Virus record (IMG/VR): IMGVR_UViG_2684622542_000012
Source of the DNA: a virus
Taxonomy: Duplodnaviria; Heunggongvirae; Uroviricota; Caudoviricetes
Strand: one strand, 5' to 3'
DNA: 39,564 nt
Shown here: piece by piece, positions 16,316 through 20,155 of the stretch
Numbering within the stretch: position 1 is the first letter of the stretch
Layout of the letters: the number at the start of each line of letters is the position of its first letter
Notes under the pieces: generated by a model
The model's input: only the letters and a program-made list of their open reading frames with translations
What the model was told of the DNA's origin: nothing
Databases searched by the model: none
Program-made: the position numbers and the translations under genes

Positions 16316-16605
16316 TGGTGAATTTACGTAAAGCGGCTAAAGGCCAGATGTGCCAGATCAGAATCCCTGGCTACTGCAATCACAATCCCGAAACCTCTGT
16401 GCTGGCGCATTACAGGCTGGCGGGGACGTGCGGAACAGCGACAAAACCACATGATATGCAGGCGGCGATAGCCTGTAGCTCATGCCACGATCTAATCGAC
16501 GGGCGGGTAAAAACCAGCGATTACACCAAAGAAGAATTGCGCCTGATGCATGCTGAAGGGGTTTTTCGCACACAAGAAATCTGGAGAAAGAAAGGTCATT
16601 TATGA
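16315..16605 (+). CDS. DUF1364 protein (YbcO-like, Cys/His zinc-binding putative nuclease)
   Basis: 96-aa ORF with CQIRIPGYCNHNPETSVLAHYR...ACSSCHD motif. Overlapping start/stop with neighbours, as in nin operons. Confidence 0.7.
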   Translation: MVNLRKAAKGQMCQIRIPGYCNHNPETSVLAHYRLAGTCGTATKPHDMQAAIACSSCHDLIDGRVKTSDYTKEELRLMHAEGVFRTQEIWRKKGHL

Positions 16606-17144
16606 TTTACCCAACGAATACAGGAAAAAGCGGAGAACACCTTCGCCTCACCACGCTGGAAAGTGTCTGGATTCAGGGAAAACTACGTATGTGGGGGCGC
16701 TGGTCGTATATTGGCGGTGGCAGGTCAGGGAATATGTTCAATCAGTTGTTGGCATCCAAAAAACTGACGAAAACAGCCATTAATGAAGCCCTGCGCAGAA
16801 TGAAAAAAGCGGGAATAGAGAAAGCTGAGCTGGAAGCGTTTTTGCGAGAGATGATCAACGGCAAGCAAAAGAGCTGGCTGGCGCATTGTACTGATGCAGA
16901 GGCGTTATGTATTGATCGAGTCATAAGTGAGGTGCTGGCAGAGCATCCAGGATTGATTTGCATTCTCCGGCAACGCTATGAAGGGCGGGGGATGACTAAG
17001 CGCAAAATGGCTGAATTGCTAAATGATGCACACCCAGAGTGGTGTTTTAGCACATGCGAAAAACGGATTGCTAATTGGTTAGCTGTTGCTGAGTATGCCC
17101 TATATATTCCCATGCGTGAATCATTTGCTGAGAAAATGGCTTGA
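16602..17144 (+). CDS. Putative late-gene antiterminator Q-like protein
   Basis: 180-aa ORF last in the nin-like operon, directly upstream of a strong intrinsic terminator and the lysis cassette. Assignment is positional plus weak family resemblance. Confidence 0.55.
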   Translation: MIYPTNTGKSGEHLRLTTLESVWIQGKLRMWGRWSYIGGGRSGNMFNQLLASKKLTKTAINEALRRMKKAGIEKAELEAFLREMINGKQKSWLAHCTDAEALCIDRVISEVLAEHPGLICILRQRYEGRGMTKRKMAELLNDAHPEWCFSTCEKRIANWLAVAEYALYIPMRESFAEKMA

Positions 17145-17224
17145 TTTCTTACGTATAAACTGCTTCAATTTTGCTATGCTTCGCAAAGCTGTATCGCGAG
17201 GCGGATTGCAGACATGGACATCGT

Positions 17225-17251
17225 AAAAAAACCGCTTAATGCGGTTTTTTT
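17225..17251 (+). terminator. Rho-independent terminator (tR'-like, downstream of Q)
   Basis: aaaaaaACCGCttaatGCGGTttttttt: 5-bp GC stem, 5-nt loop, T7 run, about 80 bp after the Q-like stop. Confidence 0.7.
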
Positions 17252-18128
17252 ACGTCAGGAAAGCAGGGGAGAATGCTGCTAGTTGGGCAACTGGTCTTTC
17301 TGCTCCAAATTATAACAGAGACCAGTTATAGTTTCGGTGCTGTGTTTTTTTTACAATATTGTGATAACACATTGCTGGCGGGAGTTTTGATATTTCTTGG
17401 CAGGGGCTGATGATGCGTTATCCTGATGTCGTCAACTCATATAAAATGAGATGAGAGATCATTGCAGGGTGGTTTGTAATNNNNNNNNNNNNNNNNNNNN
17501 NNNNNNNNNNNNNNNNNNNNNNNNNNNNNNNNNNNNNNNNNNNNNNNNNNNNNNNNNNNNNNNNNNNNNNNNNNNNNNNNNNNNNNNNNNNNNNNNNNNN
17601 NNNNNNNNNNNNNNNNNNNNNNNNNNNNNNNNNNNNNNNNNNNNNNNNNNNNNNNNNNNNNNNNNNNNNNNNNNNNNNNNNNNNNNNNNNNNNNNNNNNN
17701 NNNNNNNNNNNNNNNNNNNNNNNNNNNNNNNNNNGTATGATGAGTATTTTTTGTTTTCCTTTTTTCCAGTCATCTGATGATGACCTGCTTCTTTTTAATC
17801 CGGATCGACATCAGTTTTTTAAGATAATTCCTGCGAGTTATATGCATAAATGCCACAAACTCCGCATTTTATGTGGTTGGGAGTTGCCGGGCGCGCAGTG
17901 AGTTTGCTAAGAAAACTCCTGCATGGTGAATCCCCCTGTGCGGTGGGGTGATACCATTAACCTTTTCTGTCGCCGACAGGTATCACGAACATTTTGTTCA
18001 CCGGGAGGCACCCGGCACCATGCACTTCAATAGATTCTCTCCACATTATGGATATTCTTTCAGAATATCCCACGCAGACTTTGTGTAAATGTTAACAAAT
18101 GTGCGTTTTATTTGATCTGATTCGCTGT

Positions 18129-18158
18129 TTGAGCGTCCAAAACAACGGTATATATAAT
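18129..18158 (+). promoter_or_regulatory. Putative sigma70 promoter for the TolA-like lipoprotein gene
   Basis: TTGAGC (18129-18134), 18-bp spacer, TATAAT (18153-18158), followed by RBS gtgAGGAaaa and ATG at 18188. Confidence 0.4.
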
Positions 18159-18187
18159 CCTTTACTATATGACATATGTGAGGAAAA

Positions 18188-18616
18188 ATGGGTTTTCGTA
18201 GCGCATCAATTCTTACGTTGATTATTAGTGGGATTATTATCGGGTGCACTGATGCTGTATCGACAAATTATCATGACCGTACATCATATTACTCCGATAA
18301 AGCAATAGAGACACAGTATGTGAGTTCATCTGAACGTACTTCTGATGTTAGTGAGGATATCCGTCTGTATGCCCATCAAATCAAGAGCGCCATCGAAAAA
18401 CAGTTCGGGGATGCGAGTAAGTATTCAGGAAAAGAGTGTACACTGAGAATGCATATGGCCCCGAATGGCCTTCTACTGGAGGTTAAAAGAGAAAGTGGAG
18501 ACCTCGATTTATGTCGTGAAGCGATGAATGCGATAAAGAATGCTGATATACCTGCCCCCCCTTCGCCGGAAGTATATAAAGTATTTCAAAATGGGGTGCT
18601 GGATTTTAAACCCTGA
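18188..18616 (+). CDS. Lipoprotein with TolA C-terminal domain III-like fold
   Basis: Signal peptide with lipobox IIGC. C-terminal region YAHQIKSAIEKQFGDASKYSGKECTLRMHMAPNGLLLEVKRESGDLDLCREAMNAIKNADIPAPPSPEVYKVFQNGVLDFKP is colinear with the recalled E. coli TolA C-terminus (YAGQIKSAIESKFYDASSYAGKTCTLRIKLAPDG...PPSQAVYEVFKNAPLDFKP). Confidence 0.75.
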   Translation: MGFRSASILTLIISGIIIGCTDAVSTNYHDRTSYYSDKAIETQYVSSSERTSDVSEDIRLYAHQIKSAIEKQFGDASKYSGKECTLRMHMAPNGLLLEVKRESGDLDLCREAMNAIKNADIPAPPSPEVYKVFQNGVLDFKP

Positions 18617-18937
18617 TATTTATTGTTTTGTAATAAACGGTTTCGGCTTAGGTTTGTTCTGACNNNNNNNNNNNNNNNNNNNNNNNNNNNNNNNNNNNNN
18701 NNNNNNNNNNNNNNNNNNNNNNNNNNNNNNNNNNNNNNNNNNNNNNNNNNNNNNNNNNNNNNNNNNNNNNNNNNNNNNNNNNNNNNNNNNNNNNNNNNNN
18801 NNNNNNNNNNNNNNNNNNNNNNNNNNNNNNNNNNNNNNNNNNNNNNNNNNNNNNNNNNNNNNNNNNNNNNNNNNNNNNNNNNNNNNNNNNNNNNNNNNNN
18901 NNNNNNNNNNNNNNNNNNNNNNNNNNNNNNNNNNNNN

Positions 18938-19191
18938 GGGCGCAAGCGCGGGGAATCAGAGCTGCAATTAATGCCAAACTTGATGAGCCGCATAACTGGA
19001 AAGGGAAAAAATGCAGGTTGCATATGGAATTCTCTCAGGATGGCACGGCGTTAAAAATATCTACCAGTAACGGTGATAAAGCCTATTGCGAAGCGATAAA
19101 GTCCGCAGCTCATAAAGCCAAATTTCCGGCCTTCAACAATCCGGAAGTCTACAGAGATTTTCAGAAATCTGGCTTTGACATGCGAGGTTAG
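18938..19191 (+). CDS. Second TolA domain III-like protein; N-terminus in N-run 18664-18937
   Basis: In-frame translation after the gap: ...GKKCRLHMEFSQDGTALKISTSNGDKAYCEAIKSAAHKAKFPAFNNPEVYRDFQKSGFDMRG, stop 19189-19191. Same G-K-x-C-x-L...C...PEVY pattern as the upstream paralog. Confidence 0.55.
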
Positions 19192-19442
19192 CTCTTCAAT
19201 TACTATATCTCATTCATAGCAAACTGACAGATTTGATGATGTTCTATATACGAAACCTGTGATGTCAAGTCTGAGCTAATACAAATAAACATAATATCAG
19301 AGAAATACATTTTATTAGCTCGCTACGGCGAGCTTTTTATATTGCATCGTCTCCAGCATATATATCAATTAAGGCTCTGATTGATGTGTCTGAAAGCCTA
19401 CACATAATAACTATGCCATCCGTTCCGTGCGGAGGTGAGGCT

Positions 19443-19658
19443 ATGAAATCCATGGACAAAATTTCAACAGGCATTGCCTACGGCACCTCCGCAGGCAGTG
19501 CTGGCTACTGGTTTTTACAGTTGCTCGATAGAGTAACTCCGTCACAGTGGGCTGCAATCGGTGTGCTGGGTAGTCTGGTATTTGGCCTGCTGACGTACCT
19601 GACAAACCTTTATTTCAAGATTAAAGAAGATAAGCGCAAGGCTGCGAGAGGTGAATAA
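19443..19658 (+). CDS. Holin (phage 21 S / EssD-like class II), 71 aa; possible upstream alternative start at 19386
   Basis: [71 protein letters not shown]. Two transmembrane segments and charged C-terminus. Overlaps the endolysin start. Confidence 0.85.
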
Positions 19659-20155
19659 TGCCTCCATCATTACGAAAAGTCGTTGCTGCTGCTATTGGTG
19701 GCGGAGCAATTGCTATAGCATCAGTGTTAATCACTGGCCCAAGTGGTAACGATGGTCTGGAAGGTGTCAGCTACATACCATACAAAGATATTGTTGGTGT
19801 ATGGACTGTATGTCACGGGCATACAGGAAAAGACATCATGCTCGGTAAAACGTATACCAAAGCAGAATGCAAAACACTCTTGAATAAAGACCTTGCCACT
19901 GTCGCCAGACAAATTAACCCGTACATCAAAGTCGATATACCGGAAACAACGCGCGGCGCTCTTTACTCGTTCGTTTACAACGTGGGTGCTGGTAATTTCA
20001 GAACATCGACGCTTCTTCGCAAAATAAACCAGGGCGATATCAAAGGCGCATGTGATCAGCTACGTCGCTGGACATATGCTGGCGGTAAGCAATGGAAAGG
20101 TCTCATGACTCGTCGTGAGATTGAGCGTGAAGTCTGTTTGTGGGGTCAACAATGA
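19658..20155 (+). CDS. SAR endolysin (lysozyme, RrrD / phage 21 R-like), 165 aa
   Basis: N-terminal signal-anchor-release segment [20 protein letters not shown] followed by a T4-lysozyme-like domain (E...D...T motif region [11 protein letters not shown]). Confidence 0.9.

Follow-up and report, generated by a model that had tools for sequence, protein, structure and literature searches.

What are two genes that resemble only the tip of the envelope protein TolA doing between the late antiterminator and the lysis genes of a prophage? The question is raised by the virus record IMGVR_UViG_2684622542_000012 of IMG/VR, whose full 39,564 nucleotides (the window, positions 1-39564) make up an apparently complete Rac-type prophage integrated at ttcA. 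A first-pass annotation, made from the letters of the window, had described two tandem mimics of TolA domain III (TolA-III), at least one of them a lipoprotein, lying between Q and the holin; the position is confirmed by the PHROG assignments of the two flanking genes (Table 1). The two genes are here called gene 1 and gene 2. By sequence and fold their products are members of the TolA C-terminal domain family, and yet they are not TolA. As to their role, the first-pass annotation had suggested a periplasmic decoy for superinfection exclusion, colicin protection or interference with Tol-Pal. It is possible, with a likelihood that we would put just short of even, that both act as unenergised periplasmic TolA-III decoys for the ligands with which invaders enter the cell, so that the lysogen would be tolerant of them.

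Gene 1 starts at an ATG with a GAGGA Shine-Dalgarno sequence 4-8 nt 5' of it. Its product matches the Pfam family TolA_C (PF06519) over residues 49-140 (E 2.4e-23; 82.6 bits against a cutoff of 25) and, by phmmer, the solved TolA-III structures 1S62, 3QDP, 2X9A and 1TOL (E ~5e-28). The colinearity with TolA-III that had been read from the sequence, down to the C-terminal LDFKP, is upheld by a gap-free alignment to TolA 334-421 in which 52 of the 88 residues are identical. In the AlphaFold2 model the predicted local distance difference test score (pLDDT) is above 90 at residues 54-142 and below 50 at residues 1-50, which are disordered, and Foldseek superposes the model on 2x9a_B with a root-mean-square deviation (rmsd) of 0.7 Å over 88 residues, a template modelling (TM) score of 0.95 and 59% identity. 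Gene 1 reaches only the last ~95 positions of the NCBIfam models of full-length TolA (293-386/387 and 265-362/362). Its score with one of these models, NF007065, is 107.8 and falls under the cutoff of 213, while with TIGR02794 it scores 75.6, above the cutoff of 59.45; this latter pass probably explains the “tolA” label that PGAP gives to gene 1.

Gene 2 is partly masked in the window. Its frame is visible from 18940, a correction to the 18938 given earlier, and this visible part again passes the gathering score of TolA_C (E 1.3e-14; 54.6 bits, cutoff 25). The masked run 18664-18937, whose recovery the first-pass annotation had called for, could be filled from E. coli genomes whose sequence on either side of it is 100% identical (the locus used here is L001, from strain SCU-316); there it is 245 nt long and holds the N-terminus of gene 2. 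The gene starts at GTG-MGLKKIVMLTFWVGFVAGC..., with a GAGGAG ribosome-binding site before the GTG, and in full it is L001 7033-7428, differing from P0048 by one residue. The start at window position 18796 was counted back from the right flank and lies inside the mask. The runs of N do not keep the true length (17483-17734 has 252 N for a stretch of 255 nt in the flank-identical genomes, and 18664-18937 has 274 N for one of 245 nt), and coordinates inside or across them are therefore approximate. PGAP starts gene 2 at an internal ATG, and the positively charged start of the signal peptide is thereby lost; this looks like an annotation artefact of judging the gene against full-length TolA. The AlphaFold2 model of gene 2, with pLDDT above 90 over its TolA-III part as in gene 1, is superposed by Foldseek on 3qdp with an rmsd of 1.2 Å, a TM score of 0.91 and 31% identity. 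Structure prediction, which had been proposed as a check on the similarity, thus finds the fold of TolA-III in both proteins.

To count as a predicted lipoprotein, a sequence had to show a positively charged n-region followed by a hydrophobic core, the lipobox [LVI][ASTVI][GAS]C, and any residue but Asp at +2; both genes show all of these. The N-terminus of gene 1 reads MGFRSASILTLIISGIIIG-C-TD, in which R4 and a hydrophobic core precede the lipobox I-I-G-C (residues 17-20); that of gene 2 reads MGLKKIVMLTFWVGFVAG-C-TP, with K4-K5, a hydrophobic core and the lipobox VAG-C19. The lipobox already seen in gene 1 by the first reading is therefore real, and the suggestion of at least one lipoprotein can be extended, gene 2 being a predicted lipoprotein as well. 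Of the 27 full-length relatives of gene 1, 24 keep the lipobox, and it persists (as IVGC, TTGC or TAGC) in signal peptides that are otherwise diverged; the remaining three seem to have starts that were mis-called or truncated. Among relatives of gene 2 the lipobox is kept in 117 of 118. The +2 residue, in the genes and in their relatives, is Thr, Ala or Ser and never Asp. In E. coli, a residue other than Asp after the lipidated cysteine leads to sorting to the outer membrane, and because Asp never occurs here outer-membrane sorting is predicted. From their sequences, then, both proteins are predicted to be lipoproteins anchored at the outer membrane, and in both the anchor is linked to the domain by ~30 residues that are modelled with low confidence.

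In the gene 2 family this tether is itself conserved. Residues 19-48 (window ~18850-18939, masked; L001 7087-7176) carry the conserved sequence CxPLHPSxCHKTTAxGSCSSGRWDDQDEWG. The family holds a conserved C-x8-C loop here, with low AlphaFold confidence and a ratio of non-synonymous to synonymous substitution rates (dN/dS) of 0.11-0.16, and the tether of gene 2 may be a functional element and not a passive linker. A further conserved motif of gene 2, GSCSSGRWDDQDEWG, was considered as a mimic of the TolB box of colicins, which we take to be DGSGW...WG. This was rejected: the motif aligns with the beginning of helix 1 of TolA-III (TolA 334-340), AlphaFold2 builds it into the domain, and its Gly is not conserved in the relatives.

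Both genes superpose on solved TolA-III, an alpha/beta fold in which a sheet of three strands packs on helices, and the disulfide cysteines of TolA-III, C363 and C388, are kept in both and are invariant in the alignments and the residue table. Neither gene has the transmembrane anchor with which TolA joins TolQR, or the long Ala/Lys/Glu-rich helical domain II. The binding surfaces of TolA-III are known in some detail. Its β3 strand binds the N-terminus of TolB, the N1 domain of the filamentous-phage protein g3p (g3p-N1) and colicin N (ColN) by strand augmentation (PMC4339652; PMC7391070); complexes with g3p in the PDB include 1TOL, 2X9A and 4G7X, of which 2x9a is that of If1 g3p with TolA. The changes D418P and K420P in TolA abolish the binding of both TolB and ColN and give a full tol phenotype with periplasmic leakage (PMC4339652). 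Colicin A (ColA) uses a different surface, formed by β2 (375-LLDIKP-380, the ColA box) together with K368, K379 and K396 (PMC3365938). In gene 1 the β3 strand (APLDFKP at 415-421 of E. coli TolA) reads GVLDFKP, leaving L417-D418-F419-K420-P421 unchanged; the ColA box is conservatively altered to LLEVKR, K379 and K396 are retained, and K368 is replaced by H. The corresponding sequences of gene 2 are SGFDMRG in β3 and ALKIST in the ColA box, with E, S and H at positions 368, 379 and 396.

The first-pass annotation had taken gene 2 for a more divergent paralog of gene 1. It is indeed a divergent TolA-III, but it is not a close paralog, and tandem duplication of gene 1 is rejected as its origin: the two are identical at 25 of 88 positions (28%) without gaps and at 29% in a MAFFT alignment. 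The nearest relative of gene 1, of everything found, is E. coli TolA-III itself at 59%, against at most 52% for the stand-alone lipoprotein representatives and 52-53% for two longer TolA-like representatives. Gene 2 is 31% identical to TolA-III and clusters with short proteins, which make up all of its nearest neighbours. Gene 1 being nearest to TolA-III and gene 2 distant from both, two independent acquisitions are indicated. Selection was followed by the Nei-Gojobori method. Against a 66%-identical variant, gene 1 has a dN/dS of 0.25 over the domain (dS 0.45) and 0.36 over the whole protein (dS 0.59). For gene 2 the values are 0.075 against the Enterobacter copy (dS 1.10), 0.106 against that of K. 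oxytoca (dS 0.87) and 0.116 against that of pO157 (dS 0.52), with an overall range of 0.06-0.12. Judged by these comparisons, gene 2 is a member of a separate family under strong purifying selection.

Together the two genes appear to form a moron-like cassette, made up of a promoter-like site, the two genes and a terminator before the holin (Table 1). The promoter candidate lies 30 nt 5' of gene 1 and is identical in phage mEp460. The terminator was detected by a scan of the identical locus (L001 7554-7571) as a 7-bp stem with 5 GC pairs and a T-run, and the same scan detected none between gene 1 and gene 2. The location is that of a moron, a slot between Q and the lysis genes that is variable among related phages, with the reservation that promoter and terminator are consensus matches only. 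The 66%-identical variant of gene 1 is found by itself in this slot between Q and holin in lambdoid prophages unrelated to this one, and there too terminators follow.

The pair is found at at least 99% identity in 784 of 5426 complete E. coli genomes (~14%) and, 98.9% identical, in the sequenced phage record mEp460_ev081. The cassette is missing from most lambdoid phages. A fold search of BFVD gave no viral TolA-III fold at E <= 1e-3, and a scan of IMG/VR gave, among the matches listed (80 loci), only near-identical E. coli prophage copies. An exhaustive profile search of 1.84 billion representatives yielded 580 relatives; among the best 149 of these, 78 are 100-165 aa long and 55 of the 78 have a strict lipobox, so stand-alone TolA-III lipoproteins constitute a sizeable family. 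Several distant short homologues lie on contigs too short to inform.

Many of the relatives are on plasmids. By tblastn, TolA-III-domain sequences occur on 1307 plasmids, the cases inspected being stand-alone lipoprotein genes, and gene-2-type genes occur at 525 places on plasmids in the complete E. coli genomes, with 80-90% nucleotide identity. They are part of the plasmid backbone on IncI1-type plasmids, where the gene is directly 3' of the relaxase gene and beside trbABC (L094/L095 6964-7395), and on pO157, where it lies in the leading region between hok/psiAB and toxB (L091 4815-5246). On Klebsiella IncF plasmids one such gene adjoins a gene for a TraF/DsbA-like thioredoxin-fold protein. 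Elsewhere members of the gene 2 family stand singly in the chromosome amid housekeeping genes, both in Enterobacter (24 contigs with the same neighbours; L083 6001-6435) and in K. oxytoca (L089 6001-6408); phage or plasmid genes were not seen near these loci, and the proteins are 83-85% identical to gene 2 of the E. coli prophage, with dS 0.9-1.1.

A further group of relatives is paired with the corresponding domain of TonB. CloDF13-like cloacin plasmids of ~10 kb (for example a ColRNAI plasmid of K. pneumoniae, L090 9206-9939) encode, in translational coupling, a 123-aa TolA-III lipoprotein that ends in APLDFRP and a secreted TonB C-terminal domain that stands alone (121 aa; PF03544, E 9e-11); the two genes adjoin those for a cloacin-like bacteriocin, its immunity and lysis. 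The pair is present on ~380 plasmids. One paper mentions the pair, as TolA and “TolB family” (sic), as a variable module of a cloacin plasmid, without a function (PMC10269471). On an unrelated mobile element, seen in a metagenomic contig (L100 4112-5357), a coupled operon encodes a TonB C-terminal-domain (TonB_C) lipoprotein of 152 aa, a secreted protein of 144 aa that has no Pfam match, and a TolA-III lipoprotein of 118 aa. The operon has DUF4942, a reverse transcriptase with SLATT_5 and a GIY-YIG gene as its neighbours, surroundings reminiscent of a defence island, and the L100 protein is present in 70 blocks of the collection.

How could such proteins serve as decoys? Each would consist of a lipid anchor, the short tether and a TolA-III fold, and both would be placed on the inner face of the outer membrane. 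Because TolA domains I and II are missing, neither would be coupled to the TolQR motor, and therefore neither would transmit force. By β-strand augmentation the decoys would bind those ligands of invaders that have to capture TolA-III for entry, and would hold them at the outer membrane; in group A colicins these ligands are the translocation domains, and in filamentous phages the N1 domain of g3p. Gene 1 would mimic E. coli TolA-III closely; gene 2 would be an older, separately acquired member with a probably different or broader set of ligands, and it may have a ligand of its own. In the lysogen the proteins would be made from the promoter of the cassette, with the terminator shielding the holin, and during lytic growth they would also be expressed from the Q-antiterminated late transcript.

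The consequences of such a protein in the periplasm have a precedent in the laboratory. Levengood-Freyermuth, Click and Webster (J Bacteriol 1993) are said to have made E. coli colicin-tolerant, Ff-resistant and leaky with periplasmic TolA-III, and in the work of Howard et al. (J Bacteriol 2001) a periplasmic TonB C-terminal domain reportedly blocked TonB-dependent uptake. A modest dose of decoy could trap invaders while barely disturbing Tol-Pal, as TolA-III binds ColN at ~1 µM and TolB at ~40 µM (PMC4339652). The decoy reading is made more plausible by the fact that gene 1 retains most of the ColA box and the edge strand to which TolB, g3p and ColN bind, by the presence of homologues on conjugative and bacteriocin plasmids, and by the recurrence of stand-alone TolA-III in operons with stand-alone TonB_C; a pairing of the tips of both import motors would make sense for the blocking of import. 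The conjugative pili of IncI1-type plasmids are receptors for TolA-dependent filamentous phages such as If1.

Several observations weigh against the decoy reading. Gene 2 has diverged at both of the known binding surfaces, and its fixed chromosomal loci fit a housekeeping role in the envelope at least as well as a role in defence. A decoy that binds the N-terminus of TolB could be costly to the cell. Among sequenced phages only 1 of 50,697 records has such a gene by tblastn, and this is not a common phage strategy; PADLOC, moreover, matched no defence model to the cassette. Expression in the lysogen would depend on the promoter that the first-pass annotation assigned to gene 1. The 10/12 site is present, but it is a consensus match only, in a region with 11 such sites against 6.7 +/- 2.2 in shuffled sequence, and it is not present 5' of the 66%-identical variant of gene 1.

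The same observations bear on what else the proteins could do. A tethered TolA-III could instead modulate Tol-Pal, binding the N-terminus of TolB (TolB-Pal) or CpoB in competition with TolA and locally stopping the mobilisation of Pal; the payoff would be a weaker outer membrane, of help at lysis, or more vesicles, which in the lysogen could act as sinks for phages and colicins. The placing of the genes on a Q-dependent late transcript just ahead of the holin, endolysin and spanin would suit this, as would the exact conservation of the TolB-binding β3 strand in gene 1 and the leakiness that artificial periplasmic TolA-III is said to cause. However, a terminator and candidate promoter of their own follow the logic of a moron and not that of a lysis gene, a spanin region of the Rz/Rz1 type is already present in the prophage, and the plasmid and chromosomal homologues have no lysis context. 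The full tol phenotype with leakage of TolA D418P and K420P also counts in its favour, as does a review of Tol-Pal that raises the possibility that modulated TolB interactions could regulate vesicle production (PMC7391070), but the TolA-TolB interaction is so weak that high expression would be needed (PMC4339652). That Enterobacter carries the gene constitutively in its chromosome speaks, too, for a family that does the envelope no harm. We consider modulation of Tol-Pal unlikely. Alternatively, TolA-III lipoproteins, and especially the gene 2 family, may be cellular proteins that bind partners other than those of TolA (an outer-membrane protein, peptidoglycan enzymes, or a plasmid or phage component), the mobile copies being accessory cargo. 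The fixed, non-mobile loci in Enterobacter and K. oxytoca, the low dN/dS of the gene 2 family including its Cys-loop tether, the changes at both binding surfaces of gene 2 and the size of the family all favour such a role. Yet gene 1 is specifically closest to E. coli TolA-III with the ligand-binding strands retained, and the family is enriched on colicin and conjugative plasmids and recurs with stand-alone TonB_C. As for the diverged surfaces, β-strand augmentation is mostly a matter of the backbone and tolerates side-chain change (PMC3365938, PMC4339652). A ligand of the cell's own as the general explanation also has a rather small probability in our estimate.

Two further explanations carry much less weight. 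The domain could serve the element's own conjugation, entry exclusion or phage DNA entry, as might be thought from the gene-2-like genes 3' of the IncI1 relaxase gene and beside trbABC, from the copy in the leading region of pO157, and from the copy beside the TraF/DsbA-like gene of Klebsiella IncF plasmids. The same family is, however, carried by non-conjugative cloacin plasmids, prophages and chromosomes, and we know of no need for TolA-III in either conjugation or lambdoid phage infection; a transfer function is very improbable. RefSeq and PGAP would make gene 1 a pseudogene of tolA, labelled “incomplete, missing N-terminus” or “frameshifted” (L001 6622-6882; L093 21729-22156), that is, a decaying 3' piece of tolA taken from the host, of which it matches only the C-terminal model positions. 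The frame is, however, intact, with its own Shine-Dalgarno sequence and ATG and a lipoprotein signal peptide foreign to TolA; the lipobox is kept across diverged variants, dN/dS is 0.25-0.36, the near-identical gene is present in the 784 genomes and in a sequenced phage, and the AlphaFold2 model is confident. By the evidence of sequence a decaying fragment is effectively refuted, with hardly any likelihood left to it, and the pseudogene label is probably an artefact of judging gene 1 against models of full-length TolA.

To return to the decoy reading, its components resemble several known systems. The closest is TolA-III of E. coli (1TOL, 1S62, 2X9A, 3QDP/3QDR; PF06519), with which both genes share the fold and the disulfide cysteines, and gene 1 also the same LDFKP edge strand and a near-identical ColA box; TolA differs in lacking the lipoprotein signal peptide and short disordered tether and in being anchored in the inner membrane, where an outer-membrane anchor is predicted here. 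The dominant-negative constructs of TolA-III and of the TonB C-terminal domain made in the laboratory are similar in that a periplasmic tip without a motor reportedly competes with the native protein. Here, by contrast, the tips are natural, predicted to be lipid-anchored, under purifying selection and borne by prophages and plasmids, and the phenotype is a predicted one. Small outer-membrane lipoproteins that block later invaders are well known from mobile elements, often as morons: Llp of T5, Cor of phi80, N15 and mEp phages, and TraT of F. The present proteins would be like these in kind, location and effect, but Llp, Cor and TraT act on a receptor (FhuA, OmpA) and have no TolA fold, whereas the target proposed here is the TolA-binding epitope of the invader in the periplasm. 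Searches of Pfam, NCBIfam and PHROG related neither gene to Llp, Cor or TraT and returned only TolA/TonB-type models and PHROG 5772, whose description is “unknown function”. Periplasmic g3p, as in the superinfection immunity of Ff and CTXphi lysogens, blocks the interaction of g3p with TolA-III and gives colicin tolerance. This is the same interaction with mirrored logic: g3p occupies the TolA of the host, while here a copy of TolA would engage the g3p or colicin on its way in, and the host TolA would stay free. The CloDF13-like pair, finally, has a comparable TolA-III lipoprotein of ~120 aa, which shares 39% identity with gene 1 and 48% with E. coli TolA-III, but couples it to a TonB_C partner beside bacteriocin, immunity and lysis genes, where the prophage has two TolA-III proteins and no TonB_C. 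By these analogies, a decoy mechanism would join two kinds already known, the entry-blocking lipoproteins of mobile elements and the dominant-negative tips of import motors. The literature searches turned up no study of the function of a TolA-III that a phage or plasmid encodes naturally.

A broader proposal is more tentative, and we think it somewhat doubtful: stand-alone, lipid-anchored TolA-III and TonB_C tips may be a widespread and so far unrecognised defence cargo of mobile elements, with Rac and mEp460 carrying a two-decoy version tuned to the ligands of E. coli TolA. Prophages and conjugative and bacteriocin plasmids would then all use such tips as periplasmic decoys that protect broadly against Tol- and Ton-dependent bacteriocins and pilus-specific filamentous phages. 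If decoys they are, interception in the periplasm by a copy of a host protein that the invader needs, and not the masking of a surface receptor, would be a new layer of defence. It would help to explain natural variation in sensitivity to colicins and filamentous phages among E. coli, where ~14% of the complete genomes have the cassette and roughly another 9% a gene-2-type copy on plasmids. The presence of these genes on conjugative plasmids, whose pili attract TolA-dependent phages, would be explained too, as would the pairing of TolA-III with the TonB C-terminal domain on cloacin plasmids. Colicin-, klebicin- and pyocin-like therapeutics and the helper phages of phage display all depend on TolA or TonB, and gene 1 is at present mislabelled as a tolA pseudogene by annotation pipelines.

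Table 1. Features of the TolA-III cassette and its surroundings, in window coordinates.
Feature	Position	Strand	Remarks
Q-like late antiterminator	16602-17144	+	PHROG 753 “anti-termination protein Q-like”, E 2e-79; PGAP: DUF1133 family
STnc100-family prophage small RNA	17891-18077	+	Rfam RF02076, 86.6 bits against a gathering score of 47
Candidate sigma70-like promoter	18129-18158	+	-35 TTGAGC 18129-18134, 18-nt spacer, -10 TATAAT 18153-18158; 10/12 consensus
Gene 1, TolA-III mimic, predicted lipoprotein, 142 aa	18188-18616	+	intact open reading frame
Gene 1, predicted signal peptide, residues 1-19	18188-18244	+	
Gene 1, lipobox Cys20	18245-18247	+	
Gene 1, disordered tether, residues 21-53	18248-18346	+	
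Gene 1, TolA-III domain, residues 54-142	18347-18613	+	
Gene 2, divergent TolA-III, predicted lipoprotein, 131 aa	18796-19191	+	visible part 18940-19191; start and residues 1-48 inferred from flank-identical genomes
Predicted intrinsic terminator, gap between gene 2 and holin	19317-19344	+	AGCTCGCTACGGCGAGCT then TTTTATATTG (T-run)
Holin	19443-19658	+	PHROG 9876/20, E 1e-37
SAR-type endolysin	19658-20155	+	PHROG 7, E 2e-68

The prophage around the cassette (Table 1) carries intR, xisR, ralR/RalA, recET, kilR, sieB and ydaTUV on its left side and terminase, portal, head and tail genes on its right, with Q, holin, endolysin and spanin also in the gene set. Holin and endolysin are named essD and rrrD in RefSeq. 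The endolysin gene is followed on its 3' side by a masked Rz/Rz1 region and then by trkG, which sits as an insertion after the lysis cassette. The truncated Rac of K-12 is without the segment from Q to endolysin, and hence without both TolA-III genes.

Immediately ahead of the cassette is a match to STnc100, a known prophage small RNA (bioRxiv 10.64898/2026.05.13.724894), which ends 110 nt 5' of gene 1. In mEp460 STnc100 again lies 5' of gene 1 (L002 4891-5081, 114 bits), its 5' half diverged and its 3' half identical. The idea that STnc100 is an obligatory part of a gene 1 module was rejected, two tRNA genes taking its place beside the 66%-identical variant. Just 3' of the Q-like gene, sub-threshold isrK-like matches on both strands (window 17177-17305; L001 5443-5571; ~20 bits against a gathering score of 50) surround a bidirectional terminator, and they are probably due to chance or reflect the hairpin alone. 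Far to the left, on the + strand at 1557-1735, is the full-length RalA antitoxin RNA (Rfam RF02694, 225 bits), which belongs to RalR/RalA, the type I toxin-antitoxin system of Rac. In strain SCU-316 (L001 1-2339 and 3074-4194) the same prophage has the anti-phage genes IteA/IteS upstream, and an ISSen4 insertion splits its NinB-like (DUF1367) gene, from which it is clear that the early-region cargo of this prophage is variable.

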